Origin: an uncultured archaeon
GTDB lineage: Archaea > Iainarchaeota > Iainarchaeia > Iainarchaeales > VGJJ01
Length of the DNA stretch: 64,000 nt
Assembly: GCA_964427715.1 (NCBI GenBank)
Contig: CAYRUV010000002.1
Span: 85,663 to 149,662 of the forward strand
Direction: 5' to 3'
In this document: piece after piece, positions 30,825 to 53,047 of the stretch
How the letters are laid out: every line of letters begins with the position of its first letter
How positions within the stretch are numbered: the stretch's first letter is position 1
Translations under genes and position numbers: made by a program
Notes under the pieces: model-generated
Told to the model about the DNA's origin: nothing
What the model saw: the letters and a program-made list of their open reading frames with translations, nothing else
The model's database searches: none

Positions 30825-30827
30825 ATC

Positions 30828-31316
30828 ATGCGCAATGCTCAGGCTAGTTTACCGGATCTCCTTTTCGCGACGTTCCTTTTCTTCATTCTTCTCGCGGGTC
30901 TGTATTACTACACGCAGTCTTTACAGTCCGAGGCGCAGGAGCGGTTGGATCGTCGCACGTTGGATGTCCTTTCTTCGAATCTTGCCGAGTTCATCATCAA
31001 GAACCCCGGGACGCCGGTCAATTGGCACGAATTGTCGGATCAGAATCAGATTGTGCAGATCGGTCTTGCGCAAAAGGATCGAGTGTTGAATCCTGAAAAG
31101 GTGGTGGCGCTCGTGAACATGGGAAATTTGGATTATGCGAACACGAAGACGAGGCTGCACCTGCCCTATTACGAGTTCTATATGACTTTTTCCGGGGGGG
31201 TTGACCTCGAGACGGGAATCGAACCCTCTGCCAATAAGAACGCGAGCGTGGTGCAACGATTGGTTACCATTGATGGGGTGGAAACGACCTTCACGCTGAC
31301 CCTGTATGAGCCCTAA
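30828..31316 (+). CDS. pilin-like protein (162 aa)
   Basis: MRNAQASLPDLLFATFLFFILLAGLYYY has a class-III-signal-like N-terminus. Confidence 0.6.
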   Translation: MRNAQASLPDLLFATFLFFILLAGLYYYTQSLQSEAQERLDRRTLDVLSSNLAEFIIKNPGTPVNWHELSDQNQIVQIGLAQKDRVLNPEKVVALVNMGNLDYANTKTRLHLPYYEFYMTFSGGVDLETGIEPSANKNASVVQRLVTIDGVETTFTLTLYEP

Positions 31317-34300: not shown

Positions 34301-34482
34301 GCGTGTCGTATTCGTACCAGTTCACGCAGAATGTGCAGGCGGAGGGGGAGTTGTATGCCGTGGTGAACCCGGATGGGGACATTCCTGAGTGTACGTACAA
34401 CGACCAGGATCTCATCTTTTGTTACTATACGCCCTCCACGCAGTTTTTCGCGTTGGAATACTGGGCGTGGCAGCGGGGGTGA
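31306..34482 (+). CDS. giant pilin-like adhesin (1,058 aa): prepilin-like N-terminus, VWA domain interrupted by an LVIVD-type beta-propeller
   Basis: HSRRGFAFSADIILALVLVIGILVFI at the N-terminus. MIDAS DRSGSMS is at 31990-32010. Seven LVIVD-like blades (for example GNAYDAVVSGSYAYVSDGSAGLRVVNISTPSSP) follow. The rest of the VWA lies at about 33340-33813 (MGFVSYSS...GGTATGDGI...ILMSDGLTN...IYTIGFG). Confidence 0.8.
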   Translation: MSPNVSPHSRRGFAFSADIILALVLVIGILVFISDFNPQSTDLEERRITDQYVDDLFVSLDHSGYVAKEIDTNGFSGVTLQNIYGKAQSLLPGSYDFYLQMKSYPVDINACRNSADFDSCFPDANVQSLSLGTPLPTNAPFIHGRRVFLKQQPASQCTGALSGPSNPNPFDLFSNSPYAALQSTDLNIQFDVNVSPAGPWTCDQNITVSLSVVSNTGARKAVDMVLVFDRSGSMSYDYLLDTTDAQALDLDGNNVFVADAGSGLRDINAIDPALTTLLGTYNSPGTARDVDVASGYAFLADGTSGLRVVNVNTPASPSSVAQLLVGGDAYGVASNGNDTFVATYGTDTSDITNTGTGNNELYIGRTASQLTGAQSFQPTVAMISGVAVTVLKTGSPSGNLTVSIRSSISGSDLASATIASSSVTSSYQTLTATFTNALGVTPGSTYYIVLSTSATSSSNYYEWRGSNSSSYSGGQAYQNTTSQNWDARFETYLINGLVKVNTTTKSSPVVVGAYALSDPWRIHLVGTTAYVSDGSSGLKIFDVSGNTPSLTGTYNTSGNAYDAVVSGSYAYVSDGSAGLRVVNISTPSSPTLSATYNTPGTAYATRLNGGYAYVADGSSIQVINISTPTSPVFVKSYSTPWNYRDMEVRVVDGVTWGYLAIDNSLEGLATVNLDTGPKINQAQVAATSFVDFNGWDSNNDQMGFVSYSSSATTDQQLTKTYSLVKSDINATVATGGTATGDGINAASSELNSVRHNPAALKFQILMSDGLTNAGANSSTAAINADNNGIVIYTIGFGKDADASELSNIATITGGKYYQASDQDALIDVYSLIAQDIQLIATDANIVAGLEDGITIVSDGNGFLVGGDIQFDINTQTPPPWVATYTFNIPCTETLACSSTLLSVPSPGTHFEYVDVNGVTQEQSWDIFSTQSFNYRDLNISILSGDLVGPSNTDLTVLVQSLGTLDTNSSSVSFYQGAPPTNLLSTVSIPSLCGQLNPGCVSYSYQFTQNVQAEGELYAVVNPDGDIPECTYNDQDLIFCYYTPSTQFFALEYWAWQRG

Positions 34483-35469
34483 ATGGGTATGAATTGTCGC
34501 GGGGTATTTTTCACGTTTCTCTCGTTCATTTTGATTGGGGTAATCCTCTCCCTCTTGTTGTTTTCCTCCTCGTCCAATCAGCGGTTTTCGGAGACCACCA
34601 TCGAGGTTTCGGTGTTGAATGCCATTAATGCAAAATACGACGATATCACGGACGACATCATCACGCTGGATCCCACCATCGGTCTTCCAGGGATTCAGCA
34701 GAGAATTCTCCCGTTCACGTATGAGGAGGATGGCAACACCCTTTCCATTTCCCAGACACTTCCCATTTCCAGTGGAAAATTAGCGTTGTATTTTGACCTA
34801 ATTAACGCGTATCGGGTGTTTGTGGAGGACCTGAACACCCAGCAGACTTTTGATGGGGTGACCGTGGACTTGAATGTGCCCACTCCTGCCTCCTGGGGTG
34901 GGACGTCTTCTTTGTCGGCGGGGTTCAATATTCTCCCGCAGTGTCTTCAGTATCGGATTGAGGACACGAACAACGTGTCGTTTTCTTCCGAATCATTCAT
35001 CGGCTGTGCGAATGACTTCTCGTTGTCTTCTATTCGGCGGATTGACATCAATGTTTCGCTTCCCACGGGGACGGATGACTACAACAGTGTCTCGTGTTCG
35101 TTCTCCGGGGGGTGTCCGCATCAGGATTACAATGCAGATTTAGGTCCCTATTTCACGTTGCGCTTCTTGGATTCGAACTGCACTTCTTGTGTGGTGTCGG
35201 CGTCGGATCAATTCATCTATGGTCACTTTGACTCGGATCCACAGACGATTGTGTTTGCGTGCACGGGCGGAAGTTGTGAGTCGTTGCCCATTACGCTTCT
35301 GTTTGGGAATGCTCTCCACGTCTCGCACGGGGGTTCTCCGGTGGTGATTGAGGCGGCGGTGACGTTCAATGAGGACATCTCCACATTCTACTATCAGGAT
35401 GCGAACTACACGGCGCGCAAGACGGGTTTCAACACGTATAAAAGCAATGTCGTGGTGTTTCCCACATGA
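34483..35469 (+). CDS. pilin-like protein (328 aa)
   Basis: MGMNCRGVFFTFLSFILIGVILSLLLF. The start abuts the previous stop (TGAATG). Confidence 0.6.
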   Translation: MGMNCRGVFFTFLSFILIGVILSLLLFSSSSNQRFSETTIEVSVLNAINAKYDDITDDIITLDPTIGLPGIQQRILPFTYEEDGNTLSISQTLPISSGKLALYFDLINAYRVFVEDLNTQQTFDGVTVDLNVPTPASWGGTSSLSAGFNILPQCLQYRIEDTNNVSFSSESFIGCANDFSLSSIRRIDINVSLPTGTDDYNSVSCSFSGGCPHQDYNADLGPYFTLRFLDSNCTSCVVSASDQFIYGHFDSDPQTIVFACTGGSCESLPITLLFGNALHVSHGGSPVVIEAAVTFNEDISTFYYQDANYTARKTGFNTYKSNVVVFPT

Positions 35470-36599
35470 GCGCCATGGATTGGGCAATGGGTCTATTTGC
35501 TCTGGTGGTGGGAGTGGGGGTTCTCTATTTCATCTTCACGCAGCCTCCCTCGGTGTCCACGGTCACGGGTCCTCCCACATTAACGATTCAAGGTCTTCCC
35601 ACCGCCTACGTGGGGGCGTCGCACACGGTCACGGTTCGGGTGACGGGGCACGGGAAGGAGGATATTCTTGTTCGGGGCGGGGGAGTTGAGCAGGTGCTTC
35701 CATGTTCCGAGTCCATTTGTTCGTATTCGCTGCCCTTCACGTTCACGGAGGAGGGTCCTCAGATTATTCACGCTGAATCGGGTTATTTGTCGGTGGATTG
35801 GAAATTGGATGTGAAGACGAAGACATCTATTTGTCTGGATGGCACCCCTGAGGGGGTGTGCAGTTCTCCTCCTCTGCGCTGCGTGAATCAATCATTGATT
35901 TCCGATTGTTCTTCCTGTGGGTGTCCGAGTGGTGAATCGTGTGTCGAGCATGCGTGCACGAAGGAACCTTTTTCATTCGCGCTCGATTTAGGGGTCCTGC
36001 CGACTCTCTACACCAGCGTCGCAGTTCCTATTCCTCTCGTCGTGACAAACACGTCGCCCGTGTCGGCGAGTGGATTATTTGTGGGTCGCGTGCAGTGGTA
36101 TGATTCCAGTTCCATCCTTTTAGGGGAGCAGTCGCTGCAGTTCCTGCTAGATGATTTTTCTTCTGGCGTGTCGGAAACATATTTCATTCCTGTCTTGCTG
36201 CCCAAGTCGGCGTCCTTTCTGAATGTCCAGTGGTTTCCTTCTGGGGGGGTGTATGATTCATCCACGCTCCTCGCCGCATTGTCTTCGTTCGAAAAAATCT
36301 CCGTGGTTGAGGACCAGAGTCCTCCTTCTCCTCCTGTGGGGTTGGATTATTCCATTGACGGATCCACGTTGATTCTCTCATGGAGCGCGAGCGTGTCGTC
36401 GGATGTGAAGGAGTACATTGTTCATCAGCAGAACGCGGCGACGGGAGGATTCACTACGTATTCGACGGTGGCCATCACACCGAACACTTCATACTCACTT
36501 ATCCTTCCGCCCGATGGAACTGCCTTCGTGTTGACGTCGCGGGATGAGGCAGGGAATGAAAGTGCTCCCACGTCGCCGATCGTCGTGAACGCCTCCTAA
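35466..36599 (+). CDS. membrane-anchored protein with Cys-rich segment and C-terminal fibronectin-III-like domain
   Basis: TM helix MGLFALVVGVGVLYFIF. A Cys cluster (CLDGTPEGVCSSPPLRCVNQSLISDCSSCGCPSGESCVEHAC) and an FN3-like end (PPSPPVGLDYSIDGSTLILSWSASVSSDVKEYIVHQQ) are present. ATGA overlap. Confidence 0.65.
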   Translation: MSAMDWAMGLFALVVGVGVLYFIFTQPPSVSTVTGPPTLTIQGLPTAYVGASHTVTVRVTGHGKEDILVRGGGVEQVLPCSESICSYSLPFTFTEEGPQIIHAESGYLSVDWKLDVKTKTSICLDGTPEGVCSSPPLRCVNQSLISDCSSCGCPSGESCVEHACTKEPFSFALDLGVLPTLYTSVAVPIPLVVTNTSPVSASGLFVGRVQWYDSSSILLGEQSLQFLLDDFSSGVSETYFIPVLLPKSASFLNVQWFPSGGVYDSSTLLAALSSFEKISVVEDQSPPSPPVGLDYSIDGSTLILSWSASVSSDVKEYIVHQQNAATGGFTTYSTVAITPNTSYSLILPPDGTAFVLTSRDEAGNESAPTSPIVVNAS

Positions 36600-36628: not shown

Positions 36629-37129
36629 ATGGACTCCCGAAGCGATGCTCCCTCCCGGGGCTTTTGGAAAGGCTTGGCCCACATCCTCCATTTGCCTCCA
36701 GCCAAGGCGCCGTATTCCACGAAGGAAGTGGGGCCGGCGACCGGGTTTCGTCCCACTCCTGCGGCTCAATCACCTGTATCTTCTCCTCCGGTCGTGCGTG
36801 CGGCTCCCACTCCTGTTCCCATCTCAAAACCGGTGTCAGTTTCGAAGGCGCCGACAAAAGTAGCGTCTCCTCCCGCGACCATCTGGAAGGAGGAGCCGGC
36901 GACTCCCAACAGATTGGGTGAGGTGCCCATCATCACGGATTATGATCGCATTTTTGAATTGGTCAAGCGTCGACAGTCCATGAAATTGGATGAGATTGCG
37001 CGCGTGTTAGCCTTGAAAGAGGAGCAGGTCGCGCAGGAACTGCAGACGTTGGAAGACAATGGTCTGGTCGAGGTCAAGTATCCCGCGTTCGGGGAACCAC
37101 TAATCGTATACAAGAGGCCGGATGAGTGA
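36629..37129 (+). CDS. Pro-rich protein with C-terminal winged-helix domain
   Basis: 166 aa with a low-complexity Pro/Ala/Ser N-half and C-terminal YDRIFELVKRRQSMKLDEIARVLALKEEQVAQELQTLEDNGLVEVKY. It overlaps the ATPase gene by 8 nt. Confidence 0.6.
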   Translation: MDSRSDAPSRGFWKGLAHILHLPPAKAPYSTKEVGPATGFRPTPAAQSPVSSPPVVRAAPTPVPISKPVSVSKAPTKVASPPATIWKEEPATPNRLGEVPIITDYDRIFELVKRRQSMKLDEIARVLALKEEQVAQELQTLEDNGLVEVKYPAFGEPLIVYKRPDE

Positions 37130-38624
37130 TCGTATGGCGTTCAAGAAAGATGAATCGTATACCGTCCAATCGGACATTGCCGTAACCGTGGATATCGGGA
37201 AGGATGACGAGCAGTATGTCAAGCAGTACCTCCTGCATCTTCCCGAGTTCGGTCCGGGTACGCGAGCCATGTTGAATGATCTCAAGTCAAAGATCGTGAC
37301 GGAAGTGAACATTTCTTCCGAGAAGATGCTCGACACCAAGTTCGTGAATGATTTGAAACGAACATTTCGAGAGAAGGCGGATTCCCTCCTCACGCATTCG
37401 CTTCCTACTCTCACGAAGGAAAATCGGGACAAGCTAGTCACGGTCATGCTGAATGAGATGGCGGGACTTGGACCAATCGAATTCCTGTTGTCGGATGGAA
37501 ACCTGGAAGAAATTGTGGTGAATTCGGCCCAGGAACCCGTGTGGGTGTATCACAAGAAGCACGGGTGGTTGAAGTCCAATATTTTCATTTCACCGGAAGC
37601 CGATATTCAAAACTACGCAAGTATTATCGCGCGACGTGTGGGAAAGCAAGTCACCGTGTTGAATCCATTATTGGATGCGCACTTGGTGACGGGGGATCGT
37701 GCGAATGCCTCTTTATTTCCGATTTCATCTCGAGGAAACACCATCACTATTCGTCGTTTCCGCCGCGATCCATGGACCGTTACGGATTTCATCAACGCGG
37801 GAACATCCTCGGCTCCCCTGAGTGCGATGCTCTGGCTGGCGATGGAGTACGAATTGAACATCATGGTGTCGGGTGGAACCGGATCAGGAAAGACGACCTT
37901 GTTGAATGTCATGCTGCCCTTCATCCAGCCCAACCAGCGTGTGTTGACCATTGAAGACACGCGCGAATTGACGCTGCCGGACTTCCTGCACTGGGTCCCC
38001 ATGACGACGCGTGAACCTAACGCAGAAGGAAAGGGTGCAGTAGGGATGCTCGATTTGTTGGTGAACGCGCTCCGAATGCGACCAGACCGAATCATTGTGG
38101 GGGAAGTTCGTCGGCAGAAGGAAGCCGAAGTGATGTTTGAAGCGATGCACACGGGACATAGTGTGTATGCTACCGTGCACGCCAACACGGCCGAAGAAAC
38201 CATTCAGCGTTTGACGAGTCCGCCGATTGAAATCGCTCCTTCTTTGCTTGAAGCGGTGCACTTGAATGTGGTGATGTTTCGTAACCGTCGTTTAGGTGTG
38301 CGTCGTATTCTCCAGTTGGCCGAGTTCGTTCCTCAGAAGGCGGGGAATGAAGGAAAGATTCAGTTGAAGGCGAATATTCTTTTCCGCTGGAGGGCCCAGA
38401 CGGATTCCATCGAGAAGTACTCGGAATCCATTCGCTTGTTCGATGAGTTGGCCTTGCATACAGGATATACGGCTGGGGAATTGACGCAGAACTTATCCGA
38501 AAAAGAAAAGGTGCTCAATTGGATGGTCAAGGAGAAGCTCCGGGACATCAATCAGGTGGGGGCGGTCATGGCTGCCTACTATTCGGAGCCCGAATCCATC
38601 CTCAAGCGGGCTGGGGTCCGCTGA
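37122..38624 (+). CDS. type II/IV secretion-family ATPase (FlaI/ArlI / TadA/CpaF-like)
   Basis: Walker A SGGTGSGKTT, Asp box LTIEDTREL, Walker B PDRIIVGEVR, His box MHTGHSVYATVHA. Confidence 0.92.
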   Translation: MSDRMAFKKDESYTVQSDIAVTVDIGKDDEQYVKQYLLHLPEFGPGTRAMLNDLKSKIVTEVNISSEKMLDTKFVNDLKRTFREKADSLLTHSLPTLTKENRDKLVTVMLNEMAGLGPIEFLLSDGNLEEIVVNSAQEPVWVYHKKHGWLKSNIFISPEADIQNYASIIARRVGKQVTVLNPLLDAHLVTGDRANASLFPISSRGNTITIRRFRRDPWTVTDFINAGTSSAPLSAMLWLAMEYELNIMVSGGTGSGKTTLLNVMLPFIQPNQRVLTIEDTRELTLPDFLHWVPMTTREPNAEGKGAVGMLDLLVNALRMRPDRIIVGEVRRQKEAEVMFEAMHTGHSVYATVHANTAEETIQRLTSPPIEIAPSLLEAVHLNVVMFRNRRLGVRRILQLAEFVPQKAGNEGKIQLKANILFRWRAQTDSIEKYSESIRLFDELALHTGYTAGELTQNLSEKEKVLNWMVKEKLRDINQVGAVMAAYYSEPESILKRAGVR

Positions 38625-38639
38625 CGTGAGGCGCTCTCC

Positions 38640-39530
38640 ATGATTGCACGATTCAGCATGCCCTTGAACGTGCTGCCCATGCCGTTGCTGCGCTGGGCCA
38701 GCAAGCATTTGTTGGGATACGGGACGCAATTTGGAAAATTCATGCCACTCAAGGACATTGACATGAAGCGCGCCGAGTTGCCCGTGACGGTCAAAGAGTA
38801 TGCGACGATGAGTCTTGTTATTGTTCTCTTCTATTTTCTCTTCTTTTCACTAATTTTCTTCGTGATGGCGTTCCGTTTATTCAACCAGCTTAGTATTTTC
38901 CCCCTCGTCTTGAGTGGGATATTTTCTATTCTTGTTTTCGTGCAGCTCATCGCTTTCCCGATTATTCGTGTCAAGAAGAAGGTCCGCGAGTTGGATCGGA
39001 ATCTCGTATTCGCGCTGCGTACCATTCTGGTGCAGCTCCGCTCGGGTGTGAGTTTGTTCGAATCCATGAAGGTGGTGGCGGAAGGGAACTATGGGGCGGT
39101 GTCGCGGGAGTTCAAGAAAGCCGTGGATCAGATTTCCACGGGGACTATTCAAGAGGATGCTCTTGAACGAATCGCGGAGTACAATCCTAGCATTTATTTC
39201 CGTCGCGCATTGTGGCAAATTGTGAATGGTATGCGCGCCGGGGCGGATATTTCATTGGTGTTATCGGAGAGTGTGGACACGCTCACGGAGGCGCAATCTA
39301 TACAGATTCGAAACTATGAATCACAGATGAAAATCCTCTCACTGGTGTACATGATGTTGGGTGTAATCGTTCCGGCGTTAGGCATTACATTCCTGATTGT
39401 TTTGTCGTCGTTTCCGCAGATTAAAATCACCGACATGTACTTCTGGGTCTTGTTGGCGTTCTGTGGAGTCGCACAGTTCATGTACATGGGAATCATCAAG
39501 AGCAAGCGTCCGTCGCTGCTGGGGGATTAA
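38640..39530 (+). CDS. filament platform protein, single T2SSF domain (TadB-like half)
   Basis: Polytopic, with T2SSF-like cytoplasmic domain LRTILVQLRSGVSLFESMKVVAEGNYGAVSREFKKAVDQISTGTIQEDAL. Confidence 0.8.
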   Translation: MIARFSMPLNVLPMPLLRWASKHLLGYGTQFGKFMPLKDIDMKRAELPVTVKEYATMSLVIVLFYFLFFSLIFFVMAFRLFNQLSIFPLVLSGIFSILVFVQLIAFPIIRVKKKVRELDRNLVFALRTILVQLRSGVSLFESMKVVAEGNYGAVSREFKKAVDQISTGTIQEDALERIAEYNPSIYFRRALWQIVNGMRAGADISLVLSESVDTLTEAQSIQIRNYESQMKILSLVYMMLGVIVPALGITFLIVLSSFPQIKITDMYFWVLLAFCGVAQFMYMGIIKSKRPSLLGD

Positions 39531-39533
39531 ATT

Positions 39534-40547
39534 ATGCCCGCCCGCTCGTCTCTCCGCGCCTTGCAGGGGATTATGGATGCCTTCGAACAGCAGTTCGCCT
39601 ACCTAGGTATACGTGTGGCGTCGCGGAAGTTTTTCATCAACATGCTGATGTTCGCCCTGGTCGTGGGGGTCGTGTCCACGGTCTTCACCAGTGTAGTGCT
39701 GGGGTGGCCGTATTTTTTGGTGATGTTTGGTTTCGTGTTTGCCTTTGTGGGGACTATTGCTGGGGTGTATCTCTTTCTCGATCTGCAAGCGGAAGGGAGG
39801 GGAAAGCAGGTGGAGCGCGTGTTGCCCGATGCCTTACAATTGATTGCCAGCAACATCAAAGCCGGCCTCACCACGGAGCGTGCCATGTTGGTGAGCGCGC
39901 GTCCCGAATTTGGTCCGTTGGAAGTGGAGATGAAGCGGGTCTCGACGCGCATTCTGGCAGGTGTTCCCGTGGAGAAGGCCATCATGGAGATTCCCAAGCA
40001 CATCAAATCCACTCTTGTTGAACGGACCACATGGTTGTTGGCGCGCGGAATAAGTTCGGGCGGAGAGATTGCGGACTTGCTGATGCAATTGTCTCGAAAC
40101 CTGCGTACGCAGATTGCCTTGCAGAGCGAAGCGCACGCGTCGATTTCCATTTACGTGATTTTGATTTTCTTCTCGGCGGCGTTTGGGGGTCCGGCGCTCT
40201 ATGCGGTGTCGAGTTTCATTGTCGCCGTGATGTCGGCGCAAACGGCAGCGCAGCCTCACGTGGATTCCGCTGCTCTCGCGGGGGCGGGTTCTCGTTTTGG
40301 GGGTTTGGGTTCGTTCATCGGGGGAGAAAGTTCAATCATTTCGCCTGACTTCGTGGTGTTCTTCGCGCAGATCATGTTATTCGTAGGAGGAGTATTCGCC
40401 TCACTCATCTTAGGGGCGATTTCCACCGGAAAGGAGAAGGATGGGGTAAAGTACATCCCCGTCGTGATGCTCTGTTCGTTCGGATTATTCTATTTGATTC
40501 GTTTCGTTCTCGTCACGGCATTCGGTCCGTTGCTATTAGGGAAGTAG
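39534..40547 (+). CDS. filament platform protein, single T2SSF domain (TadC-like half)
   Basis: LPDALQLIASNIKAGLTTERAMLVSARPEFGPLEVEMKRVSTRILAGVPVEKAI plus TM segments, starting 3 nt after the previous gene. Confidence 0.8.
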   Translation: MPARSSLRALQGIMDAFEQQFAYLGIRVASRKFFINMLMFALVVGVVSTVFTSVVLGWPYFLVMFGFVFAFVGTIAGVYLFLDLQAEGRGKQVERVLPDALQLIASNIKAGLTTERAMLVSARPEFGPLEVEMKRVSTRILAGVPVEKAIMEIPKHIKSTLVERTTWLLARGISSGGEIADLLMQLSRNLRTQIALQSEAHASISIYVILIFFSAAFGGPALYAVSSFIVAVMSAQTAAQPHVDSAALAGAGSRFGGLGSFIGGESSIISPDFVVFFAQIMLFVGGVFASLILGAISTGKEKDGVKYIPVVMLCSFGLFYLIRFVLVTAFGPLLLGK

Positions 40548-40553
40548 CTCGAC

Positions 40554-40573
40554 TTTTTTTTTTAGAAAAAAAA
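40554..40573. terminator. bidirectional oligo-T terminator between convergent genes
   Basis: T10 (40554-40563), AG, then A8 (40566-73). This gives an oligo-T tract on each strand right after both convergent stops, the archaeal oligo-T termination signal. Confidence 0.6.
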
Positions 40574-40600
40574 GTTCGATCAAAAAGATTTTGTGGGTGG

Positions 40601-41323
40601 TTATACTTCAGAAAATAGTTCTTCTTTCGGCAGTACTTCCACACCTTGTGGAGTGATGCGTACGGGCCGGAGCTTGTCGCTTATTTTCGTGTCGCGCATC
40701 TTCAGTATTCCAATGGATCGGACGAATCGATTTTCGACGCGGGTGTGATAGAGTAGTACCACTCCATCTGCCACGTATTCTTCCAGCCCGTACAGTCCTT
40801 CGTGTTGTCCAGTCGAGGACTCATTGGTGATGACGGTGGTCACGTTGAGTTTTTTGAGCATCTTCCCCAAACTCAATATTCGTTTACGCGCATCGAGTTC
40901 GCGTTCAAAGTACAGGTGAAAGATAACGCCTGGGTCGATGACGAGTCTCGTGGCTTTGTTTTTGGTGACGAGATCTTCAATGCTGTCTCGGAGTTTGTCG
41001 AAATCATAGAGCTCAACGGTTTGGATAATGACTTTCCCCTTCCTCACGAGGGGTTCCAAGTCCCATCCAAAAATAGCGGCGGTTTCCATGAGCTCTTCGG
41101 GTTTTTCTTCGAGTGAGATGAAGACGCCTGTTTCATTGTGTTTCACGGCGCCGTGATAAAGGTATTGGAGGCAGAAGATGGTTTTTCCGCTTCCCGGATC
41201 GCCAGTCAGTACGACCAGGTTTCCTTTGGGGATTCCTCCCTCGATGAGTTCGTCTAGTCCAGTAATTTCCGTGGGGGTGCGTTCCACAATGGCTTGTGGG
41301 GGGAGTGGCATGATGTTCCTCAT
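40601..41323 (-). CDS. KaiC/RecA-like ATPase (ArlH/FlaH-like)
   Basis: 240 aa with GLDELIEGGIPKGNLVVLTGDPGSGKTIFCLQ (Walker A) and RLVIDPGV (Walker B-like). The start is at ATG 41323 or 41311. The ORF-track extension to 41923 overlaps the pilin gene. Confidence 0.85.
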   Translation of the reverse strand: MRNIMPLPPQAIVERTPTEITGLDELIEGGIPKGNLVVLTGDPGSGKTIFCLQYLYHGAVKHNETGVFISLEEKPEELMETAAIFGWDLEPLVRKGKVIIQTVELYDFDKLRDSIEDLVTKNKATRLVIDPGVIFHLYFERELDARKRILSLGKMLKKLNVTTVITNESSTGQHEGLYGLEEYVADGVVLLYHTRVENRFVRSIGILKMRDTKISDKLRPVRITPQGVEVLPKEELFSEV

Positions 41324-41452
41324 GCGATGCCGGGATTTATATGTGCGTATTGGGGGTGTGTCAATTGCGGATTCAAGAGGCACGTTTATATATGAAGCCA
41401 CCATTTCTGGGAAAGCCAATTGCCTTTCTTTGCAAAGGAGGAGAGCATACAT
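41324..41452. promoter_or_regulatory. divergent promoter region (KaiC-like gene / major pilin gene)
   Basis: ATTTATAT at 41335-41342 and TTTATATA at 41385-41392. An SD-like AGGAGG at 41436-41441 lies 11 nt before ATG 41453. Confidence 0.5.
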
Positions 41453-41917
41453 ATGAATTACGGAAAACGAGGACAATCGGCACTGGAATACTTGATGACT
41501 TACGGCTGGGCCTTGGTCGTTATTGTGATTGCGGTTGCTGCATTGGTTGTATTGATTAATCCGTCCACGATCCAAGGGGATCAGTGCGATGCTAAGTTCG
41601 GACCGTTCACGGTCAGTCAAAGCGATGTTAACGCGAGCGCCACTACGCTTGTGTTGGTGAATCAGACGGGACAAGCTGTCAACTTCACGTCGGCTTCGGT
41701 CGCTGGAACTACTGGTGGTAACACCACATTCGTTCCTGGCGCCACCACGGCGGGCGGTACGGGTTCGTCCATGATCGCCAACGAAACGGACAGTTTGATT
41801 GTCGACTGGGCCAACGATTTGAACTCGGGAGCCTACAGCTTGACGTACACGTTGGTGTACACGGCTGGACAGTTGTCCGGAGTCACCGCTACAGGAAGCT
41901 GCCGCGGAACGATCTAA
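41453..41917 (+). CDS. candidate major pilin with class III signal peptide
   Basis: MNYGKRGQSALEYLMTYGWALVVIVIAVAALVVL has the canonical archaeal prepilin motif KRG/QSALEYL. It is 154 aa and monocistronic, with its own TATA, SD and terminator. Confidence 0.85.
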   Translation: MNYGKRGQSALEYLMTYGWALVVIVIAVAALVVLINPSTIQGDQCDAKFGPFTVSQSDVNASATTLVLVNQTGQAVNFTSASVAGTTGGNTTFVPGATTAGGTGSSMIANETDSLIVDWANDLNSGAYSLTYTLVYTAGQLSGVTATGSCRGTI

Positions 41918-41935
41918 ATACAATAATCACGTCTG

Positions 41936-41973
41936 GGGATGCGGCGAGAGCCGCCCCCATACGCTCTTTTTTT
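41936..41973 (+). terminator. hairpin plus T7 terminator after the pilin gene
   Basis: GCGGC-GAGA-GCCGC stem-loop (41941-41954), flanked by GGGG and CCCC, then a TTTTTTT run at 41967-41973. Confidence 0.55.
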
Positions 41974-42007
41974 AACGCGAACAATCTTTCTCCACGTGGA
42001 CATTCGC

Positions 42008-42637
42008 ATGGCGGACATGAATATCGCAAAGGGCCCAGGATCCATGCTCTCGGACGAGCAGCTCCAGGAACTCCTGCGTCCGGGTAAAGAGTTTGAGGGC
42101 AAGCTTCAGGGATACCTCTCCACGTTTTCTCCCGGTACCTCCAATCTCATCATTGTGCGGGTGGGGGACTACAACGCGGCGTCTCGCGCGATTCTGAATT
42201 ATTTTCAGCGGGTCAAAACCCCCGGGGTGTATGTGACCATCAACAAGCCCTATTCGGATCTCATCAAGGGACTTTCCATTGTGCCTGAGAACGTGTGGTA
42301 TGTGGACAGCATCACTGCGCTGACTGGAAGGGGGACGCCAGACTTGCCTCGCGTGACGTATCTCGATTCTCCCCTCGCGCTAGTGGAGATGAATCTGGCC
42401 ATCGCGGATGAGTTGAAGAAGGTAGTGAGCAATGTAAAGTTTCTCGTGGTGGATTCCATCTCCACGCTGCTCGTGTATAATTCTTCTCAGTCCGTGGAAA
42501 AGTTCTGTCACACTGTTATTTCGAAGAATCGCAGCGACAGTGTGGTGGGGGTGTTTCTCATGATTGAGTCCGAGGAACATCGGGCGGTGGTGGACACGCT
42601 GGCGCAGTTCGTCGATAATGTCGTGTTCATCCGCTAA
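42008..42637 (+). CDS. degenerate KaiC/RecA-like protein lacking a P-loop
   Basis: RecA-like strand order (NLIIVRVGDYNAASRAIL...GVYVTINKPYSDL...FLVVDSISTLL...VGVFLMIESEEH...DNVVFI), but with no GxxGxGK(S/T). The start is uncertain (42008 or 42017; ORF track gives 41939). Confidence 0.5.
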   Translation: MADMNIAKGPGSMLSDEQLQELLRPGKEFEGKLQGYLSTFSPGTSNLIIVRVGDYNAASRAILNYFQRVKTPGVYVTINKPYSDLIKGLSIVPENVWYVDSITALTGRGTPDLPRVTYLDSPLALVEMNLAIADELKKVVSNVKFLVVDSISTLLVYNSSQSVEKFCHTVISKNRSDSVVGVFLMIESEEHRAVVDTLAQFVDNVVFIR

Positions 42638-43882: not shown

Positions 43883-43890
43883 TTTATATA
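43883..43890 (+). promoter_or_regulatory. TATA box of module copy 3
   Basis: TTTATATA ends about 29 nt upstream of ATG 43919. Confidence 0.45.
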
Positions 43891-43918: not shown

Positions 43919-44578
43919 ATGAAAACACAAAACATTCTCTCGATTCTCGTATTAGGATTCCTTATTTTTGGCACGCTCGCGAGCGCGGCCGATCTATCCA
44001 CGACCACGATGACGTGGTTCGTGCCCACGATTAAGAGTTTTACCGTCTCATACGGTTCCCCTTGCTCTTCCACGGCCTTCTTCTTCGTGGAATCGAATGC
44101 GCAATACGACAATGATACAGATGCCAACTGGGCACGTGCCGTTCCTCAGTCCACGCGAACAGGGGCCGGGGACACCAACTGTCAAACCAGCTCACAAGCG
44201 GCGATTACTCTCACAAATAACGGAAACACCACGATTAACATCGATGGAAACTTCACTTCCGGACTTACGGGGTCGGATATCAACCTCGAATTGAAGGTCT
44301 GGATGGGCACCGGTTCCGGATGCGGAACGAATGGAATGGGCGGATGGCAGGAACCTTGCAGCGTAACAAATACCACCTCGGCTCCCACCTCTACTACCTG
44401 TAAGGAGTTTAGTAGCGGCACTGGCATCGACACGGAAGGAACGCGACTTGTAACGAGTTTGCCGGCTCTCGACACGAACCAATTGTGCTTCTCTGGAGAT
44501 TTGAACGGAATGTCCGGATACGGAGCCACTTCCGGGGATCACAATAAGACATTCCAGATTGGCGCTCTCTTCAGCTAG
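43919..44578 (+). CDS. A-family secreted six-Cys protein, copy A3 (minimal, 219 aa)
   Basis: Signal peptide MKTQNILSILVLGFLIFGTLASA. Motifs SFTVSYGSPCSSTAFFFVE, LTNNGNTTINIDGNF, LKVWMGTGSGCG, DTNQLCFSGDLN and GDHNKTFQIGALFS are shared with A2. Confidence 0.75.
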   Translation: MKTQNILSILVLGFLIFGTLASAADLSTTTMTWFVPTIKSFTVSYGSPCSSTAFFFVESNAQYDNDTDANWARAVPQSTRTGAGDTNCQTSSQAAITLTNNGNTTINIDGNFTSGLTGSDINLELKVWMGTGSGCGTNGMGGWQEPCSVTNTTSAPTSTTCKEFSSGTGIDTEGTRLVTSLPALDTNQLCFSGDLNGMSGYGATSGDHNKTFQIGALFS

Positions 44579-44643
44579 CGCCTTTTTGGAAGGTTTATTA
44601 ACGGCGGGGCCGTCTACTAGTGCCAATTAGGGGGCGCATTTCA

Positions 44644-45705
44644 ATGACCGAACACCATACTTCCACGCAAGAAAATCACGCTGGGGCTCACCATGCGGTA
44701 GGGTCCAAAGGAAAAGGGATTCCCACCTGGGCTCTTTTGGTTGGAGTGGTTCTCCTCATTGGGGGAGTATATTTGTTTGTTTTTTCTCCCGCTACGACGC
44801 TTTCTCCCACTGTTCCTTCATCCTCGGACGGGACTGAGGATTCGGTCATCGGATTTACGGGCGAGCCTTCTGTTGCGCCCATTGCGTCTAACGGTGCTCC
44901 GGACAGTACGGTTCTCTCCAAGGCTAAGTATCTGAAGGAACTGTACACGGTGGATCGGGATTCCTATCAACTTTTTGAAAAGGCCGCCGCCTATCGGGGA
45001 GAAACACTCGATGAGACGAAGAAGTTCTTCCTGAATTGCTGCGATTTGGGAAGTCAAGAGGAAATATTCGCTGAGCTTCCTCTCATCCCTTCTGATTTCT
45101 CAACGGTTGCATTCAATTTTGCAACGGGTCAGCTTTATCAGTTAGGTTCCATGTCGGAATCGTACTACAAGCAGCCTGAACTTTATTTCCACACCGATCA
45201 AACCGCGCTGGCGAATCGAAAGCTCGCCTTCTCGGCATGGTCGCAACCTCAGCTCAACTATTGGGGCGATTACGGTGCGAGTTCTACCCCGGCTGATCAA
45301 TATGGGGTGGTGAGCAAGAAGAATAACAAGACCTTCAAGGCCGCCGTCTTCGTGACGAATGGGTGGAATATCCAAAATTGGGTGGGTATGCACATGGTGA
45401 CCAACTTGAGTGCTTCTCAATTCTTTGATGTGAAGATTTCTGAAGAGAAGACCGGGCAACCTTACTTCTTGCTAGGTCCTACTTTTCCCACCTTCAGTAG
45501 AGATTGGGCGACCAAACTCACGATTGAGGGAACAGTGAAAGACTCTACTCCTCCTGGCGTCTATCAGGTGCGCGTGAATCCCATTCAGCCTCCTAAGGAA
45601 TTGAGTCAAAAATGGTCGGATGATCACTTGGGGATTTATGTTCCCTATGGCGGATTGGTCCCCGATACCGGGTTCATCACGCTGAATATCACCGTGACTG
45701 AATAG
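44644..45705 (+). CDS. B-family protein, copy B3 (TM-anchored)
   Basis: ATG 44644 is preceded by AGGGGG. It has TM helix WALLVGVVLLIGGVYLFVF and motifs SYYKQPELYF and LLGPTFPTFSRDW. ORF-track start 44620 is a GTG. Confidence 0.75.
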   Translation: MTEHHTSTQENHAGAHHAVGSKGKGIPTWALLVGVVLLIGGVYLFVFSPATTLSPTVPSSSDGTEDSVIGFTGEPSVAPIASNGAPDSTVLSKAKYLKELYTVDRDSYQLFEKAAAYRGETLDETKKFFLNCCDLGSQEEIFAELPLIPSDFSTVAFNFATGQLYQLGSMSESYYKQPELYFHTDQTALANRKLAFSAWSQPQLNYWGDYGASSTPADQYGVVSKKNNKTFKAAVFVTNGWNIQNWVGMHMVTNLSASQFFDVKISEEKTGQPYFLLGPTFPTFSRDWATKLTIEGTVKDSTPPGVYQVRVNPIQPPKELSQKWSDDHLGIYVPYGGLVPDTGFITLNITVTE

Positions 45706-45760
45706 GGTTAGGTGGGGTTCAAACCCCATCTAAAATAAACCCCAACTCCTCGTTCCATGC

Positions 45761-47743
45761 ATGATTTGCTCGCGCGGAGGGATTCTTCTCGCTCTGTCCT
45801 TCCTTTTCCTATTTTCCCTCGCCGCGCACGCCGATCCGACTCCCCTAGTGGGTAGCAATCCTACCTGGATAACTGGATTGGGCGGCACCTATTCGCTTGG
45901 TCTGTCGTATTCGCTCTGCCCCTCGACGACGGGCAATACCACGTTGCATGCGAACGTAGCCACTGTCCCACTCGGGGTCTCAACGGTGGATGCGAATGTT
46001 TTTGCAACTATTCGGAAGCCAGATTTATCCACCACGGATGTGAATTTCACGAATAACCTGAGTGGGGATTACACCTACACTTATAATTTTGATCAGAATG
46101 GGACCTACTTCATTCAAGCCCATGTGTATCACCCTGTCACACTAGGGGTTGGAGATGCGAATGGCTATGTGTATTTGGGCGATTTAAACTGGACTGTGGC
46201 GTTTCTCAACAATGATTTCGAGATTGAGATTGGTGAAACAGGGACAATTCGAAATACGGTGACGAATTCAGATGGGAATCTGGTTTATGACATCAATGCA
46301 AATACTACCCTCTATTATCCTAGTGGGAGCGTCGCGGATGCAAATGCAATAATGACTCAGACTTCCGATGGCGAATTCATCAAAGCTTTCTTCGGCCCGT
46401 CTCCTGCGGGAGACTACACGGTGTCTTCCATCTTCAAATGTGGGGGCAAGTATGTCGCGAATGGTTCCGGAGCATTCACGGTAACTGCTCCCGACACGAA
46501 TGGGGGAACCAGTAGCGGGGGCAGCAGCAGTGGTGGTGGCGGCGGTGGTGGTGGTGGCGGTGGCGGTGGTGGTGGATCCAAAACGGCTCAAATAATTGGA
46601 TTCGATTTCGATCCGGCTCTATCAAAGAACGCCTCTTCAGTCTTCAGTGTGACCGTCCAGAATCTCACGGGCACTGTCAAGGACTATCTGCTAGAGTACG
46701 CCATCACTCATCCATCGGGAGAATTGACGACGGGTGAAAAATTAATTCTGGCTGTGGCACCCTATCAACCCACCTCAGTGGTTTTGAATTCCGGGTTCAC
46801 TCCCCAGTATACGGGAACGTATACCTTCACTGGGTATCTGCGCACGCCCAACAAAATTGGATTATATGACATGAAGACCACCGTTTTGGATGTTCAGGGA
46901 GAACACCTCCTGAACGTCACATTAGACACGCCCTCCCCCAAGACCGCATCAGGCCTCACATTCCCATTCACGCTCGTCCTTCATAATGCAGGGGATTTTC
47001 CCGAGGAGAACGTCTTGATTCAGTGGTCGCTCACGGATGCAGAGGGAGACGAATACTTCAATTCTTCTTTCACCGCCATTCTTCCAGTGGCCGGGATTCA
47101 ATCATTTGCCCTTTCGCCGTTTATTCCAATCGATGTCGCTTTGGGGTCGCACACCCTTCTGGTGAAGGTCACTTCATCCGGCATCATGCAGGAAAAATCA
47201 CTCATGTTCGATGTCGCATCGCCGAACGACTATTATGCACAGTTCATCTCTGATCTTGAAGTGCGCATCGACCAATTGGAAGACAAGATTGACGAGCTTC
47301 AATCAAAAGGATTTGATGTGGACGCGGAATCACTGATCTTATTGGATCTCAAACAAGAGTTAGGGGACTCAAAAGGAATGTTGTTGTCCGGAAACTTCGC
47401 GCAACTCAATACTCAACTGTTAGAATTGTCGGAAAAAGTGACAAAACTGGCCGCCATTCTCGACAACATTGAGCAACAGGCACCTTTACTCTCCCGAGAG
47501 GGATTGACCATTATCCTCTACGTGGGGGTTGGCCTCATGCTTGCCACATTCCTATGGTTCCTCTTCGCACGTCGACGGAAGAAAGAAGAGGGCCCTAAAT
47601 CTCCGCCCGTGCGTCCCCTAGCGCCCAAACACATGGATAAGATGCTCGGAATTGATGTGACTTACTATCCCTCTCTCAAGCGCGAGGGCCTCAAACATAA
47701 GCCTTTAATATCCGACCTTCTTGGGTTGAAGGAGAGGAAATGA
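45761..47743 (+). CDS. surface protein (660 aa): signal peptide, beta-rich domains, Gly15 linker, coiled coil, C-terminal TM anchor
   Basis: ILLALSFLFLFSLAAHA signal, Gly/Ser tract, coiled-coil region (LEVRIDQLEDKIDELQSKG...), and TM plus basic stop-transfer LTIILYVGVGLMLATFLWFLFARRRKKEE. Confidence 0.8.
   Translation: MICSRGGILLALSFLFLFSLAAHADPTPLVGSNPTWITGLGGTYSLGLSYSLCPSTTGNTTLHANVATVPLGVSTVDANVFATIRKPDLSTTDVNFTNNLSGDYTYTYNFDQNGTYFIQAHVYHPVTLGVGDANGYVYLGDLNWTVAFLNNDFEIEIGETGTIRNTVTNSDGNLVYDINANTTLYYPSGSVADANAIMTQTSDGEFIKAFFGPSPAGDYTVSSIFKCGGKYVANGSGAFTVTAPDTNGGTSSGGSSSGGGGGGGGGGGGGGGSKTAQIIGFDFDPALSKNASSVFSVTVQNLTGTVKDYLLEYAITHPSGELTTGEKLILAVAPYQPTSVVLNSGFTPQYTGTYTFTGYLRTPNKIGLYDMKTTVLDVQGEHLLNVTLDTPSPKTASGLTFPFTLVLHNAGDFPEENVLIQWSLTDAEGDEYFNSSFTAILPVAGIQSFALSPFIPIDVALGSHTLLVKVTSSGIMQEKSLMFDVASPNDYYAQFISDLEVRIDQLEDKIDELQSKGFDVDAESLILLDLKQELGDSKGMLLSGNFAQLNTQLLELSEKVTKLAAILDNIEQQAPLLSREGLTIILYVGVGLMLATFLWFLFARRRKKEEGPKSPPVRPLAPKHMDKMLGIDVTYYPSLKREGLKHKPLISDLLGLKERK
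46532..46576 (+). repeat. 15 consecutive Gly codons (GGT/GGC/GGA simple-sequence tract)
   Basis: ggt ggt ggc ggc ggt ggt ggt ggt ggc ggt ggc ggt ggt ggt gga, read in frame and preceded by Ser/Gly codons. Confidence 0.95.
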
Positions 47744-48018
47744 CTATGCTGACCACCGAACTCATCGTATCATTGGGACTATTTGTCGTACAAATGGTGA
47801 TTGCCGTGTACTTGATTCGCTACTCCAATCAGCAGCTCATGAAGAGCATCTCAGGGTTGCGAGACAAGAACCTTGAGCTCATGAAACTCAACGCACGCTT
47901 AACTAAAACAGTTATCATGAATGAGGAAAATTTCAAGAAAGAAATTGAAGGATTTAAAGTCGGCAAGCACAAGGCCGAGCGCGAGGAAGTGCAGGTCGCT
48001 TCCTCTCGATCCAAGTAA
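47740..48018 (+). CDS. small TM plus coiled-coil protein, tandem paralogue 1
   Basis: 92 aa; ELIVSLGLFVVQMVIAVYLIRYSNQQL is shared with the next gene. ATGA overlap with the 660-aa gene, and a GGAGAGG SD. Confidence 0.6.
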   Translation: MTMLTTELIVSLGLFVVQMVIAVYLIRYSNQQLMKSISGLRDKNLELMKLNARLTKTVIMNEENFKKEIEGFKVGKHKAEREEVQVASSRSK

Positions 48019-48039: not shown

Positions 48040-48285
48040 ATGGCATTCTCTGAAATCATCGTGTCGGTCGGATTATTTGTCATTTCGATGATGGTCGCTC
48101 TCTACTTGATTCGTTATTCCAACCAACAGCTCACGAAGTGTGTCACTGCATTGGAAGAGAAGCACAATGAACTCGTTGATTTGAACGGGAAACTCGCCAA
48201 GCAAATCCTCCAATCGGACAAGGAACTCCGTGCTCACTTTCACGCTGTTAAATCCCAGCACGCTAAAAAAGGCTCTGCACAGTAA
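48040..48285 (+). CDS. small TM plus coiled-coil protein, tandem paralogue 2
   Basis: 81 aa; EIIVSVGLFVISMMVALYLIRYSNQQL, with an AAGGGAGG SD upstream. Confidence 0.6.
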   Translation: MAFSEIIVSVGLFVISMMVALYLIRYSNQQLTKCVTALEEKHNELVDLNGKLAKQILQSDKELRAHFHAVKSQHAKKGSAQ

Positions 48286-51622: not shown

Positions 51623-53047
51623 TCAAATCAGCGGCTTGTCTTGCTTGTATTCTTTATTATTTTTCATCGCTTCAAATGCTTTCTGAAGTTCGGCTCCCAA
51701 ATAGAATGCGTGATCGGGGCGTGATACCAGGTTGGAGTGAACGAGTTTGGTGAATAATTCCTCCAATGCGCGCTTCTCGTCTTTTTCCACGTTCTCCACC
51801 GTGAATTGGGTCTTTTCTCCAATGGGGGTGAAGTGTTGAAGGGTGATTTTTCGTGAAGGGTGATCTAACAGGATCACGAAGTTTCCTCGCGGGTCCACAT
51901 CAAAGCGATAGTCTGAGGAAGTGTAATGGTCGGTGAGAATTTTCGTCGCCTCCTTCCATTTCCCTTCATAGATATGGGCGCTGGTAGAGAGCACCATGAG
52001 GGAACCAATCGGAATACCCACTTCGCGTGCGACCTTCTGCTGAAGCTCTCTCCATGAAAAGAGGTTGAGGGGCCACCCCTCAAACATATCATGCGAGCGC
52101 ACATAGCAGGTTTGTTCGAGTTTTCCATGAGAAACGGACCACACCACGGAAACCAGGCACGGGGGATTTTTGTCGCGCATGTCTTTTTCCACATGCCACG
52201 TCAATCCAATAGCACGGCGCGTGTAGGGGGTTTTTTTCAGGTGCTCAATGGCATTCTCTACCTGGTTGAACTCCGTGCTTCCCGGCCATGCATGGAGGCG
52301 CGAACCATAGGTGTAAACCACTCCTTCCGTTTTCTTTCCCGTGAGGGTTTTGTCTCTATAATTATCCACGTCCTTTTGAGTAAATGGAAGAAATTCATGA
52401 ACTCCGGAGTCGTCTCCTTCAATGATGCAAAAAAGGTTGAGTAATTCTTTTTGCTTTGCACCATATTCCGTGGGTTTCTCTTCTCCAAATTTCATGATTA
52501 AGTCCAATACCTTCAGCCAACCCTGGGATATGGTGGGTGCGCGGATGAGGAATCCTTGTTTTTCTGAAGGGAATGTTTGGAACGCAGGGGGTTTGGGTTC
52601 GGGGAATGATTGAGGGGGTGCAAATGGGGGAAGAATTTCAAGTGAATCGATTTTGGCCGCTATCTCCTCGAGGGGCTTTCCTCTAAAATCGTGTACGGTC
52701 ACATTTTCGCGTATTTTTTGGAGTGCGTCGCGGGGAATTTCAGATTGGAAGGTGAAATTGGTTCCTTTGACTTTCCCATTCTCTTCGATTCCCTCCTTGA
52801 AGAAGGCGGTCCAGATATCCCCTGCATGGGTGAGATCGGCGCCCATGAGAATGAGGTGCCTCCAATGGGGGTTGGTCCAAATAGCTCTCACAATCGTGTT
52901 GAGGGCATCGTAGGAGTACTGGTTGGCACAAATGGCAAATTTTTGGGAATTAAGCCTTTGAGCGACGGGCTGGGCGAGGGTCCAAAAGGTACAGATGACT
53001 GTTGAGGACCCGCTCAGGTTCCCCTCCACAAAGTGCTCGTTTCCCAT
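51623..53047 (-). CDS. thyA: thymidylate synthase (archaeal ThyA type) with a roughly 190-aa N-terminal extra domain
   Basis: C-terminal region YTRRAIGLTWH...NPPCLVSVVW...YVRSHDMFEGWPLNLFSW...LSTSAHIYE contains the ThyA catalytic Cys and RS.D motifs. The N-terminal 190 aa (NPHWRHLILMGADLTHAGD...) is not part of classical ThyA. Confidence 0.8.
   Translation of the reverse strand: MGNEHFVEGNLSGSSTVICTFWTLAQPVAQRLNSQKFAICANQYSYDALNTIVRAIWTNPHWRHLILMGADLTHAGDIWTAFFKEGIEENGKVKGTNFTFQSEIPRDALQKIRENVTVHDFRGKPLEEIAAKIDSLEILPPFAPPQSFPEPKPPAFQTFPSEKQGFLIRAPTISQGWLKVLDLIMKFGEEKPTEYGAKQKELLNLFCIIEGDDSGVHEFLPFTQKDVDNYRDKTLTGKKTEGVVYTYGSRLHAWPGSTEFNQVENAIEHLKKTPYTRRAIGLTWHVEKDMRDKNPPCLVSVVWSVSHGKLEQTCYVRSHDMFEGWPLNLFSWRELQQKVAREVGIPIGSLMVLSTSAHIYEGKWKEATKILTDHYTSSDYRFDVDPRGNFVILLDHPSRKITLQHFTPIGEKTQFTVENVEKDEKRALEELFTKLVHSNLVSRPDHAFYLGAELQKAFEAMKNNKEYKQDKPLI

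Follow-up and report, generated by a model that had tools for sequence, protein, structure and literature searches.

Adjacent genes of two protein families in Iainarchaeia and a candidate module for surface display

A 64,000-nucleotide stretch of DNA from a Candidatus Iainarchaeum (Diapherotrites, DPANN) archaeon, called the window here, holds three adjacent pairs of genes from two protein families, A and B: A3 with B3, A2 with B2, and a giant protein, which ends in a distant A-like domain (A-prime), with B1. We tentatively read A and B as the two genes of a dock-and-anchor module for surface display in Iainarchaeia, possibly working by strand complementation. The A domain would be exported by the Sec pathway with no membrane anchor of its own, and would be displayed alone (A3), with a passenger of about 200 amino acids (aa) in a loop (A2), or at the end of giant adhesin-like proteins. 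The cognate B protein would sit on the outer face of the membrane, held there by an N-terminal transmembrane helix or a lipid anchor, and its helical and immunoglobulin-like (Ig-like) ectodomain would bind the A domain, which would hold the A-bearing protein on the wall-less cell. The contact may be a beta-strand complementation, since the A fold resembles that of donor-strand pilins. Dock and anchor is the simplest account because A has no anchor, B always has one, the genes are strictly adjacent, each type of A has one subfamily of B, and A-prime is C-terminal.

DPANN archaea are tiny and mostly uncultured, and are thought to be attached to other cells. The window also encodes aTrm56, TFIIE-alpha, aIF5B, aIF2-gamma, a Tyw1-like radical SAM protein and a type IV pilus locus.

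Sequence, anchoring and pairing of the A and B proteins

The initial annotation described A3 as a 219-aa protein made of a signal peptide and a six-cysteine domain, and that description stands. Its N-terminus, MKTQNILSILVLGFLIFGTLASA followed by AD, is a Sec-type signal: MKTQN, a hydrophobic region at residues 6-24, and an A-x-A site with cleavage predicted between ASA and AD, giving a signal peptide of residues 1-23. There are exactly six cysteines (49, 88, 135, 147, 161 and 190), all of them invariant across 44 aligned sequences. Close behind the signal peptide lies a near-invariant strand motif, TTTMTW (27-33), whose pattern T-x-T-[WF]-x-[VI]-P is kept even in the most distant members of the family. 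A DxDxDGN loop (64-70) is invariant in the alignment, and the protein has five N-X-S/T sequons. As far as these motifs suggest, the domain would be disulfide-bonded and glycosylated, and it probably binds calcium. In A3, A2 and the giant protein the sole hydrophobic segment is N-terminal and of a cleavable type, so none has an anchor of its own.

A2 shows what A3 leaves out. A hidden Markov model (HMM) of the A3 family matches A2 in two blocks, residues 4-82 (E 9e-27) and 279-405 (E 3.7e-59), and the insert of about 196 aa between them (11912-12499) falls between VRNTA and YCQSE, in the loop before the second conserved cysteine, just where the insert had been placed before. The commonest form of the family is a stand-alone protein of about 200-220 aa, and larger members carry insertions in one common loop, a few of them with an N-terminal extension, which fits the earlier description of A3 as the minimal core. 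The insert has no match among PDB sequences. A precomputed Pfam label, PF27237 (AF_1625_C), stands on A2-type orthologues of 403-405 aa (locus L005, 8493-9710; locus L006, 889-2100); since A3 orthologues carry no precomputed Pfam label, the match probably falls in the insert.

B3 runs from a His-rich cytoplasmic tail through a transmembrane helix (about 28-48) and a disordered Pro/Ser/Thr linker, a stalk of about 45 aa (residues 49-90), to a helical domain (91-200), which holds QPELY (177-181), and an Ig-like beta-sandwich (210-353), which holds GPTFP (278-282). B2 begins MNRITYSLILLPILLLAGC, and its LLAGC, with Cys19 at the end of the signal peptide, fits the lipobox pattern [LVI][ASTVI][GAS]C. 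The cysteine is conserved in B2-type orthologues (as LAGC, LGGC, LFGC or GLGC), and several short B proteins carry ASGC, LSGC or MAGC. The lipid anchor of B2 is thus a prediction from a bacterial-type lipoprotein motif. B1, whose sequence is identical to P0093, lacks the first helical hairpin of B3. Every B protein with a readable N-terminus has either a transmembrane helix or a lipobox, and QPE[FL]Y and GPTFP are common to B1, B2 and B3, as was expected of a family whose mode of anchoring varies around a kept core. In the alignment of the three, Q177, P178, E179, P279 and P282 are invariant, Q177 and E179 being the only invariant polar residues. An enzymatic function for B (sortase, peptidase or transglutaminase-like) was considered and set aside, because no catalytic-type set of Cys, Ser, His, Asp or Lys is invariant in B1, B2 and B3.

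The objection that the copies resemble each other through composition rather than descent fails. In BLASTP comparisons among the open reading frames (ORFs) of the window, A3 matches A2 over A3 residues 88-219 (E 2e-30) and 27-86 (E 5.5e-11), and B3 matches B2 (E 4e-20) and B1 (E 5e-13), with pairwise identities of 23-27% among the three B proteins. On these alignment statistics the likeness among copies is true homology.

The giant protein needed another approach. Its C-terminus was missed by the A-family HMM and by single-sequence hhalign, and its relation to A emerged only after the C-termini of big B-adjacent proteins, 18 in all, were aligned. These proteins, of 600-2700 aa, share at their extreme C-terminus a conserved four-cysteine domain of about 155 aa, A-prime, which opens with DYSFxLxLPSSGC, contains PFFVYDNQS and closes with DLNIFIWxDF...DRN; in every one, its end lies just a few residues from the stop codon. 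When A was compared by hhalign with a 28-sequence A-prime alignment, the score was 43.1 (probability 86.8%, P 4.3e-6, 143 collinear columns); 30 column-shuffled nulls scored at most 20.5 and the reversed alignment 12.7. In some metagenome-assembled genomes (MAGs), stand-alone A-prime-like proteins of about 200 aa are encoded upstream of B, and one of them (locus L042, 1709-2350) is matched by both the A and the A-prime HMMs. Because of the profile-profile score, the shuffled controls and these stand-alone proteins, the end of the giant protein is best described as a genuine but distant A domain. The claim of three copies of the pair therefore holds outright for B, with three plain paralogues, and in part for A, with two plainly homologous copies and a third that is recognisable only at the profile-profile level.

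The A and B HMMs were run over all ORFs of the fetched loci. In 44 GTDB loci, the other fetched contigs and the window, each B gene with enough flanking sequence adjoins an A or A-prime gene, with one apparent exception. In most cases the partner immediately precedes B on the same strand; sometimes it lies directly downstream or is divergent, still adjacent. It is a stand-alone A (200-290 aa), an insert-bearing A (380-630 aa) or a large protein (600-2700 aa). On a neighbour-joining tree, B cores cluster by type of partner: in the two long-B clades 29 of 29 B genes follow a stand-alone A, five of the six lipobox-bearing B genes of middle length follow an insert-bearing A, and the short B genes pair with big A-prime proteins, as the orthologues of B1 do. 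Other Iainarchaeum genomes carry orthologues of each of B1, B2 and B3 in matching synteny. The ratio of nonsynonymous to synonymous substitution rates (dN/dS), against the nearest relative (locus L009), is 0.063 for A3 and 0.104 for B3, which indicates purifying selection. Since the B subfamilies track partner type, the duplications would be ancient and the three modules are, on this evidence, specialised paralogues, in agreement with the suggestion that this is an old, selected envelope family and no recent duplication.

The three pairs differ in how closely their genes are joined. The stop of A2 overlaps the start of B2 (ATGA), and B1 starts 4 nucleotides (nt) past the stop of the giant protein, so that A2/B2 and the giant/B1 are, by their spacing, translationally coupled, in contrast to A3/B3. 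There the spacer of 65 nt with an AGGGGG element was found as annotated (A3 stop at 44576-44578, B3 ATG at 44644); orthologues have GGGG, GGTG or GAGG in place of AGGGGG. In most A orthologues a box of the TTTATATA, TTTAAAAA or TTTATAAA type stands ahead of the gene, typically some 25-50 nt from the ATG. Within the window's clade, most orthologues also share the TTTATTAA box between A and B; where its distance to the B ATG was measured (the window and three orthologues) it is 33-43 nt. The T5 run, the conserved TTTATTAA box and the G-rich Shine-Dalgarno-like element in the spacer suggest that B3 probably has its own promoter; these elements would act as promoters and terminator (Table 1). Antisense ORFs across A3 and B3 were dismissed as spurious, because the plus-strand frames are kept in dozens of relatives with low dN/dS.

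One further gene accompanies A3 and B3. A homologue of the 660-aa surface protein that follows them in the window (22-72% identity) follows the pair of stand-alone A and long B in both clades of loci, and as the sole constant neighbour of A-B in both clades it is probably a third component. Besides the parts listed in Table 1 it has a poly-Gly linker and a basic tail, with its transmembrane helix at 584-602. Its only Pfam matches are weak ones to YtkA and Filamin. Its matches among PDB sequences are single-chain variable fragment (scFv) constructs aligned through the Gly linker, and were discarded as an artefact.

The A family is real, selected and narrow. A3 has 50 homologous proteins and B3 has 40, all named 'hypothetical', all from Diapherotrites or Iainarchaeum MAGs, and with adjacent locus tags. 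A scan with the B alignment, which covered one genome per GTDB species, gave the 44 loci, at most three per genome; nearly all come from uncultured-archaeon or Candidatus Iainarchaeum MAGs, and a few bear the labels Micrarchaeota or Pacearchaeota or are likely mis-binned MAGs. HMMER with the A profile against 1.84 billion representatives gave 67 clusters (at 50% identity), with lengths of about 200 aa, about 400 aa (insert-bearing) and 500-1025 aa; the members of the distant clusters carry no informative names. Searches of A3, B3, A2, B2 and B1 against Pfam, NCBIfam and PHROGs gave nothing meaningful, only weak matches to transmembrane or lipoprotein signals, and hmmscan of A3 against Pfam gave no match at E<=1. 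The A-family profile has no sequence match at E<=10 among all PDB chains, and the four matches of the B profile among PDB sequences are at chance level. Among the libraries searched, membership of A or B in any described family is not demonstrable at the sequence level. In the literature searched there was no paper on the A/B family and none mentioning AF_1625, and no link to A/B was established for the MoxR/vWA 'secretion system' arCOGs or the NEQ255 cluster.

Table 1. Positions in the window of the A and B genes, the elements around A3 and B3, and the 660-aa neighbour
Feature	Positions	Strand	Description
A3	43919-44578	+	219-aa exported protein, beta-sandwich (AF2 model)
B3	44644-45705	+	353-aa membrane-anchored protein
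A2	11666-12886	+	406-aa A3 paralogue with insert of about 196 aa
B2	12883-13704	+	273-aa B3 paralogue, lipobox LLAGC, Cys19
B1	2952-3752	-	266-aa short B3 paralogue, transmembrane-anchored
Giant protein	3757-11604	-	2615 aa, exported, FG-GAP-like repeats (Pfam FG-GAP E 4e-6)
A-prime domain of giant	3763-4227	-	last ~155 aa, 4 Cys, distant A relative
TATA-box-like element TTTATATA	43883-43890	+	28 nt upstream of A3 ATG
T5 run	44583-44587	+	just past A3 stop; candidate terminator
TTTATTAA box	44594-44601	+	42 nt before B3 ATG; candidate internal promoter
AGGGGG, Shine-Dalgarno-like	44629-44634	+	9 nt before B3 ATG
660-aa surface protein	45761-47743	+	Sec signal peptide, beta-sandwich domains, coiled coil, C-terminal transmembrane helix

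Predicted folds and the readings they allow

The structures of A3 and B3 were predicted with AlphaFold2 (AF2). The A3 model (mean predicted local distance difference test, pLDDT, 89) shows the signal-peptide helix, an irregular segment at 22-40 that holds TTTMTW, and then a beta-sandwich; in the monomer the TTTMTW stretch does not pack into the structure as a regular strand. Among PDB folds the best match, found with a model that included the signal-peptide helix, is AbpA (7ueg_A, E 4.7e-3, probability 0.97, template-modelling score (TM-score) 0.36/0.42), and 23 of the 27 top PDB fold matches are donor-strand fibre subunits: AbpA, the type 1, CFA/I, Saf, CS17 and Csu pilins, TLP-1 and cannulae (for the cannula 9h8b, E 0.51). 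Against viral fold models, Foldseek gave nothing at E<=0.1. The B3 model has a pLDDT of 81 overall and above 90 in the ectodomain. Its beta-sandwich alone is matched by Foldseek to MSP/VAP domains (MSP, major sperm protein), cohesins and other Ig-like binding modules at E of about 1e-4, and no TapA-like match was detected in the fold search.

Several points weigh against dock and anchor. The fold matches of A3 are weak, with TM-scores of 0.36-0.42 and none at E<=1e-3, so its resemblance to donor-strand pilins is consistent with strand complementation but a weak signal, and those of B are limited to a generic Ig-like sandwich. That A and B bind, which of them anchors the other, and how they touch are things we infer. 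The apparently separate promoters of A3 and B3 agree more readily with an unequal stoichiometry than with a plain 1:1 dock. A B2-type gene (locus L045, 5821-6687) has no detectable insert-bearing A upstream. Finally, A3, the best conserved member, is a 'bare' dock with no obvious passenger, and for that reason it may do more, for example polymerise or form a lattice. A donor-strand-type surface system in the Iainarchaeum lineage, in which A would be captured by strand complementation on B, A3 would polymerise and A-prime would fasten giant adhesins, is a combination that we regard as unlikely.

The main rival takes A3 as the subunit of a fibre built by donor-strand complementation, like TasA, AbpA and the cannulae, B3 as a membrane nucleator or anchor like TapA or AbpB, and A2 and the giant protein as tip or variant subunits. 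The conserved N-terminal strand would insert into the next subunit after cleavage of the signal peptide, possibly with Ca2+ at the interfaces. Much speaks for such a fibre: the donor-strand subunits at the top of the A3 match list, the near-invariant alternating strand a few residues past the predicted cleavage site, and its unpacked state in the monomer model, as in TLP-1 fibrils, whose donor strand is disordered in AF2 monomers (PMC11494351). The invariant DxDxDGN loop would suit it, given that cannulae use Ca2+ (PMC12518558), and so would the gene order, which is that of abpA, encoding a 204-aa protein with a Sec signal, and then abpB, whose beta-rich product is a putative anchor or nucleator (PMC9245690; Pyrobaculum calidifontis, PDB 7UEG). 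The TATA box of A3, the T-run and the separate box of B3 would permit an excess of A3 over B3. We nevertheless think the fibre rather unlikely. No sequence or profile link was found to TasA (Pfam) or to any PDB chain, AbpA included, the TM-scores are low, and B has no detected similarity to TapA. The strand that would be donated is internal in the giants and in four mid-size members (590-1025 aa), and a shared fibre leaves unexplained why each type of A needs its own dedicated B.

The pairing itself could have another meaning. B might be a membrane-tethered chaperone for folding or export that binds A transiently after Sec translocation, in the way of PapD, and is no permanent anchor. The MSP fold class, which gives the best matches to the B sandwich, also holds PapD-like pilus chaperones; the one-to-one pairing with co-diversification would suit a chaperone, and a Cys-rich A would need oxidative folding outside the cell. 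PapD-like chaperones have two Ig-like domains, however, and B has one sandwich and a helical domain; the length and disorder of the B3 stalk speak more for a spacer or anchor, and of the other proteins of the loci only the 660-aa one might then keep the anchor-less A on the cell, so we judge this improbable. That protein is central to a further reading, by analogy with SlaA/SlaB, in which A3, B3 and the 660-aa protein would form a surface layer on membrane-anchored stalks into which the other modules plug adhesins. The trio is the most conserved arrangement and persists in the clade without upstream pilus genes, the 660-aa protein is stalk-like in its order of signal peptide, beta-sandwiches, coiled coil and C-terminal transmembrane helix, and A3 combines a consensus TATA box with sequons of the kind usual in surface glycoproteins. 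Yet mature A3, at about 195 aa, is small for a lattice protein and has no sequence similarity to S-layer families in Pfam or NCBIfam, and a layer of this kind seems to us more improbable still. Least of all do we expect A3 and B3 to be accessories of the type IV pilus machine encoded next to them, which would be very surprising. Pilus genes do lie directly upstream of A3-B3, both in the window and in those related loci whose upstream sequence reaches far enough (about ten distinct loci), but this adjacency carries little weight because the whole region, ribosomal protein and translation-factor genes included, is syntenic in the window's clade. In the second clade the A-B-660 genes are preceded by a big A-prime protein and a short B, and no pilus genes were detected upstream in the fetched loci; A2-B2 and giant-B1 lie far from pilus genes. 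That A itself is a type IV pilin was rejected on the class of its signal peptide, which is Sec-type and not a class III signal with a [KR]G site and a retained helix.

Neighbouring genes and other features of the window

The region at 37122-42637 holds a complete archaeal type IV pilus-like locus, with a T2SSE ATPase, two T2SSF platform genes, a KaiC-like ATPase on the minus strand, a class III pilin and a DUF7504 KaiC-like gene; the pilus genes upstream of A3-B3 also include a coiled-coil gene. The pilin, at about 41453-41917, begins MNYGKRGQSALEYLMTYGWALVVIVIAVA (MNYGKRGQSALEYL...). The mechanically called ORF 40601-41923 (-) is over-extended and overlaps it, the real KaiC being about 233 aa as in orthologues. 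In a related Iainarchaeum MAG (locus L002, 839-3829) the T2SSE ATPase is 996 aa long and contains an intein with a LAGLIDADG endonuclease; the copy in the window (500 aa) has none. Further upstream, 28063-36599 is a run of large exported proteins, which are probably pilus-associated adhesins or minor pilins. Three of them, at 28063 (...SSSRGQVSAEYL), 31306 (...RRGFAFSADIILA) and 34483, have class-III-like N-termini, and one protein of the run is 1058 aa long with LVIVD-repeat and VWA regions.

Just past the stop of B3 and ahead of the 660-aa gene is a short G+C-rich inverted repeat, GGGGTTCAAACCCC (45713-45726), followed by an A/T-rich stretch, TAAAATAAA, a possible terminator or promoter region. 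Directly past the 660-aa gene lie two small paralogues (47740-48018 and 48040-48285; 92 and 81 aa), each with an N-terminal transmembrane helix and a coiled coil; within the window's clade they keep 59-87% identity, and in the second clade their conservation is faint.

Two features lie apart from these genes. Between 14001 and 22000 the G+C content is 0.41-0.46, against about 0.50-0.53 elsewhere, and the GC and AT skews flip sign near 14-16 kb; this region has a tyrosine recombinase (17075-18010, -) and a 1173-aa protein with no Pfam match (19489-23010, -). The recombinase may be XerA rather than part of a mobile element, because locus L005 too has a recombinase near Trm56/TFIIE. At 51623-53047 (-), beside a dCTP deaminase, an unusual fusion of 474 aa joins an MtrA-like N-terminal region to thymidylate-synthase and DUF4346 pterin-binding regions.

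Known systems and what the module would mean

As far as the searched literature shows, a module of this kind has not been described before in this lineage or with this partner protein. The closest parallels are AbpA/AbpB and TasA/TapA, where, as here, the gene for a small (about 200 aa) Sec-exported beta-sandwich protein is followed by one for a larger beta-rich partner thought to be an anchor or nucleator, and no usher or classical chaperone is encoded nearby. A3 has the make-up of the TasA superfamily, a Sec signal and a jelly-roll or beta-sandwich of about 150-250 aa. Unlike AbpA and TasA, with which it shares no detectable sequence or profile similarity (Pfam Peptidase_M73, PDB chains), A has three putative disulfides and also ends giant proteins, each with its own B; unlike AbpB and TapA, B is membrane-anchored at its N-terminus and has a helical domain.

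Other likenesses are weaker. The Ig-like pilin fold class of chaperone-usher pili dominates the A3 match list, and the giant protein, with a large putative binding region ahead of a C-terminal pilin-like domain, recalls the two-domain tip adhesins (FimH, PapG). The B sandwich is near the MSP fold of PapD-like chaperones, but B is membrane-tethered, with a single sandwich and helices. No PapD-like chaperone or usher Pfam family occurs in the window genes scanned, and archaea have no outer membrane, so these likenesses are at the level of the fold, and weak. SlaA/SlaB of the Sulfolobales resembles A/B in logic, an anchor-less exported protein being encoded beside a membrane-anchored stalk on a wall-less cell; no sequence similarity was found, and SlaA is a far larger protein than A3. 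SlaB has its anchor, a transmembrane helix, at the C-terminus behind a coiled coil, an architecture that is found here in the 660-aa neighbour and not in B. Cohesin-dockerin pairs, too, place a terminal docking module on varied passengers, and their beta-sandwich receptors, bound to the cell, diversify along with the partners. The fold matches of B include cohesins, and the likeness is an analogy only: dockerins are small EF-hand-like modules, whereas A is a beta-sandwich of about 150-190 aa, and each A gene has its own adjacent B in place of a multi-cohesin scaffold.

For this lineage, the pairing gives a rule by which surface proteins can be identified directly from sequence, as those with a C-terminal or stand-alone A domain and an anchor B of their own, and the three profile alignments (A, A-prime and B) cover families that had no annotation in the searched libraries. 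If A and B do meet by strand complementation, the known range of donor-strand assembly would grow by a new archaeal phylum and a new partner protein. Should the donor-strand reading be true, Archaea would have their first donor-strand system assisted by a chaperone or anchor, and it would offer a general answer to how wall-less episymbionts hold the proteins with which they attach to their hosts.

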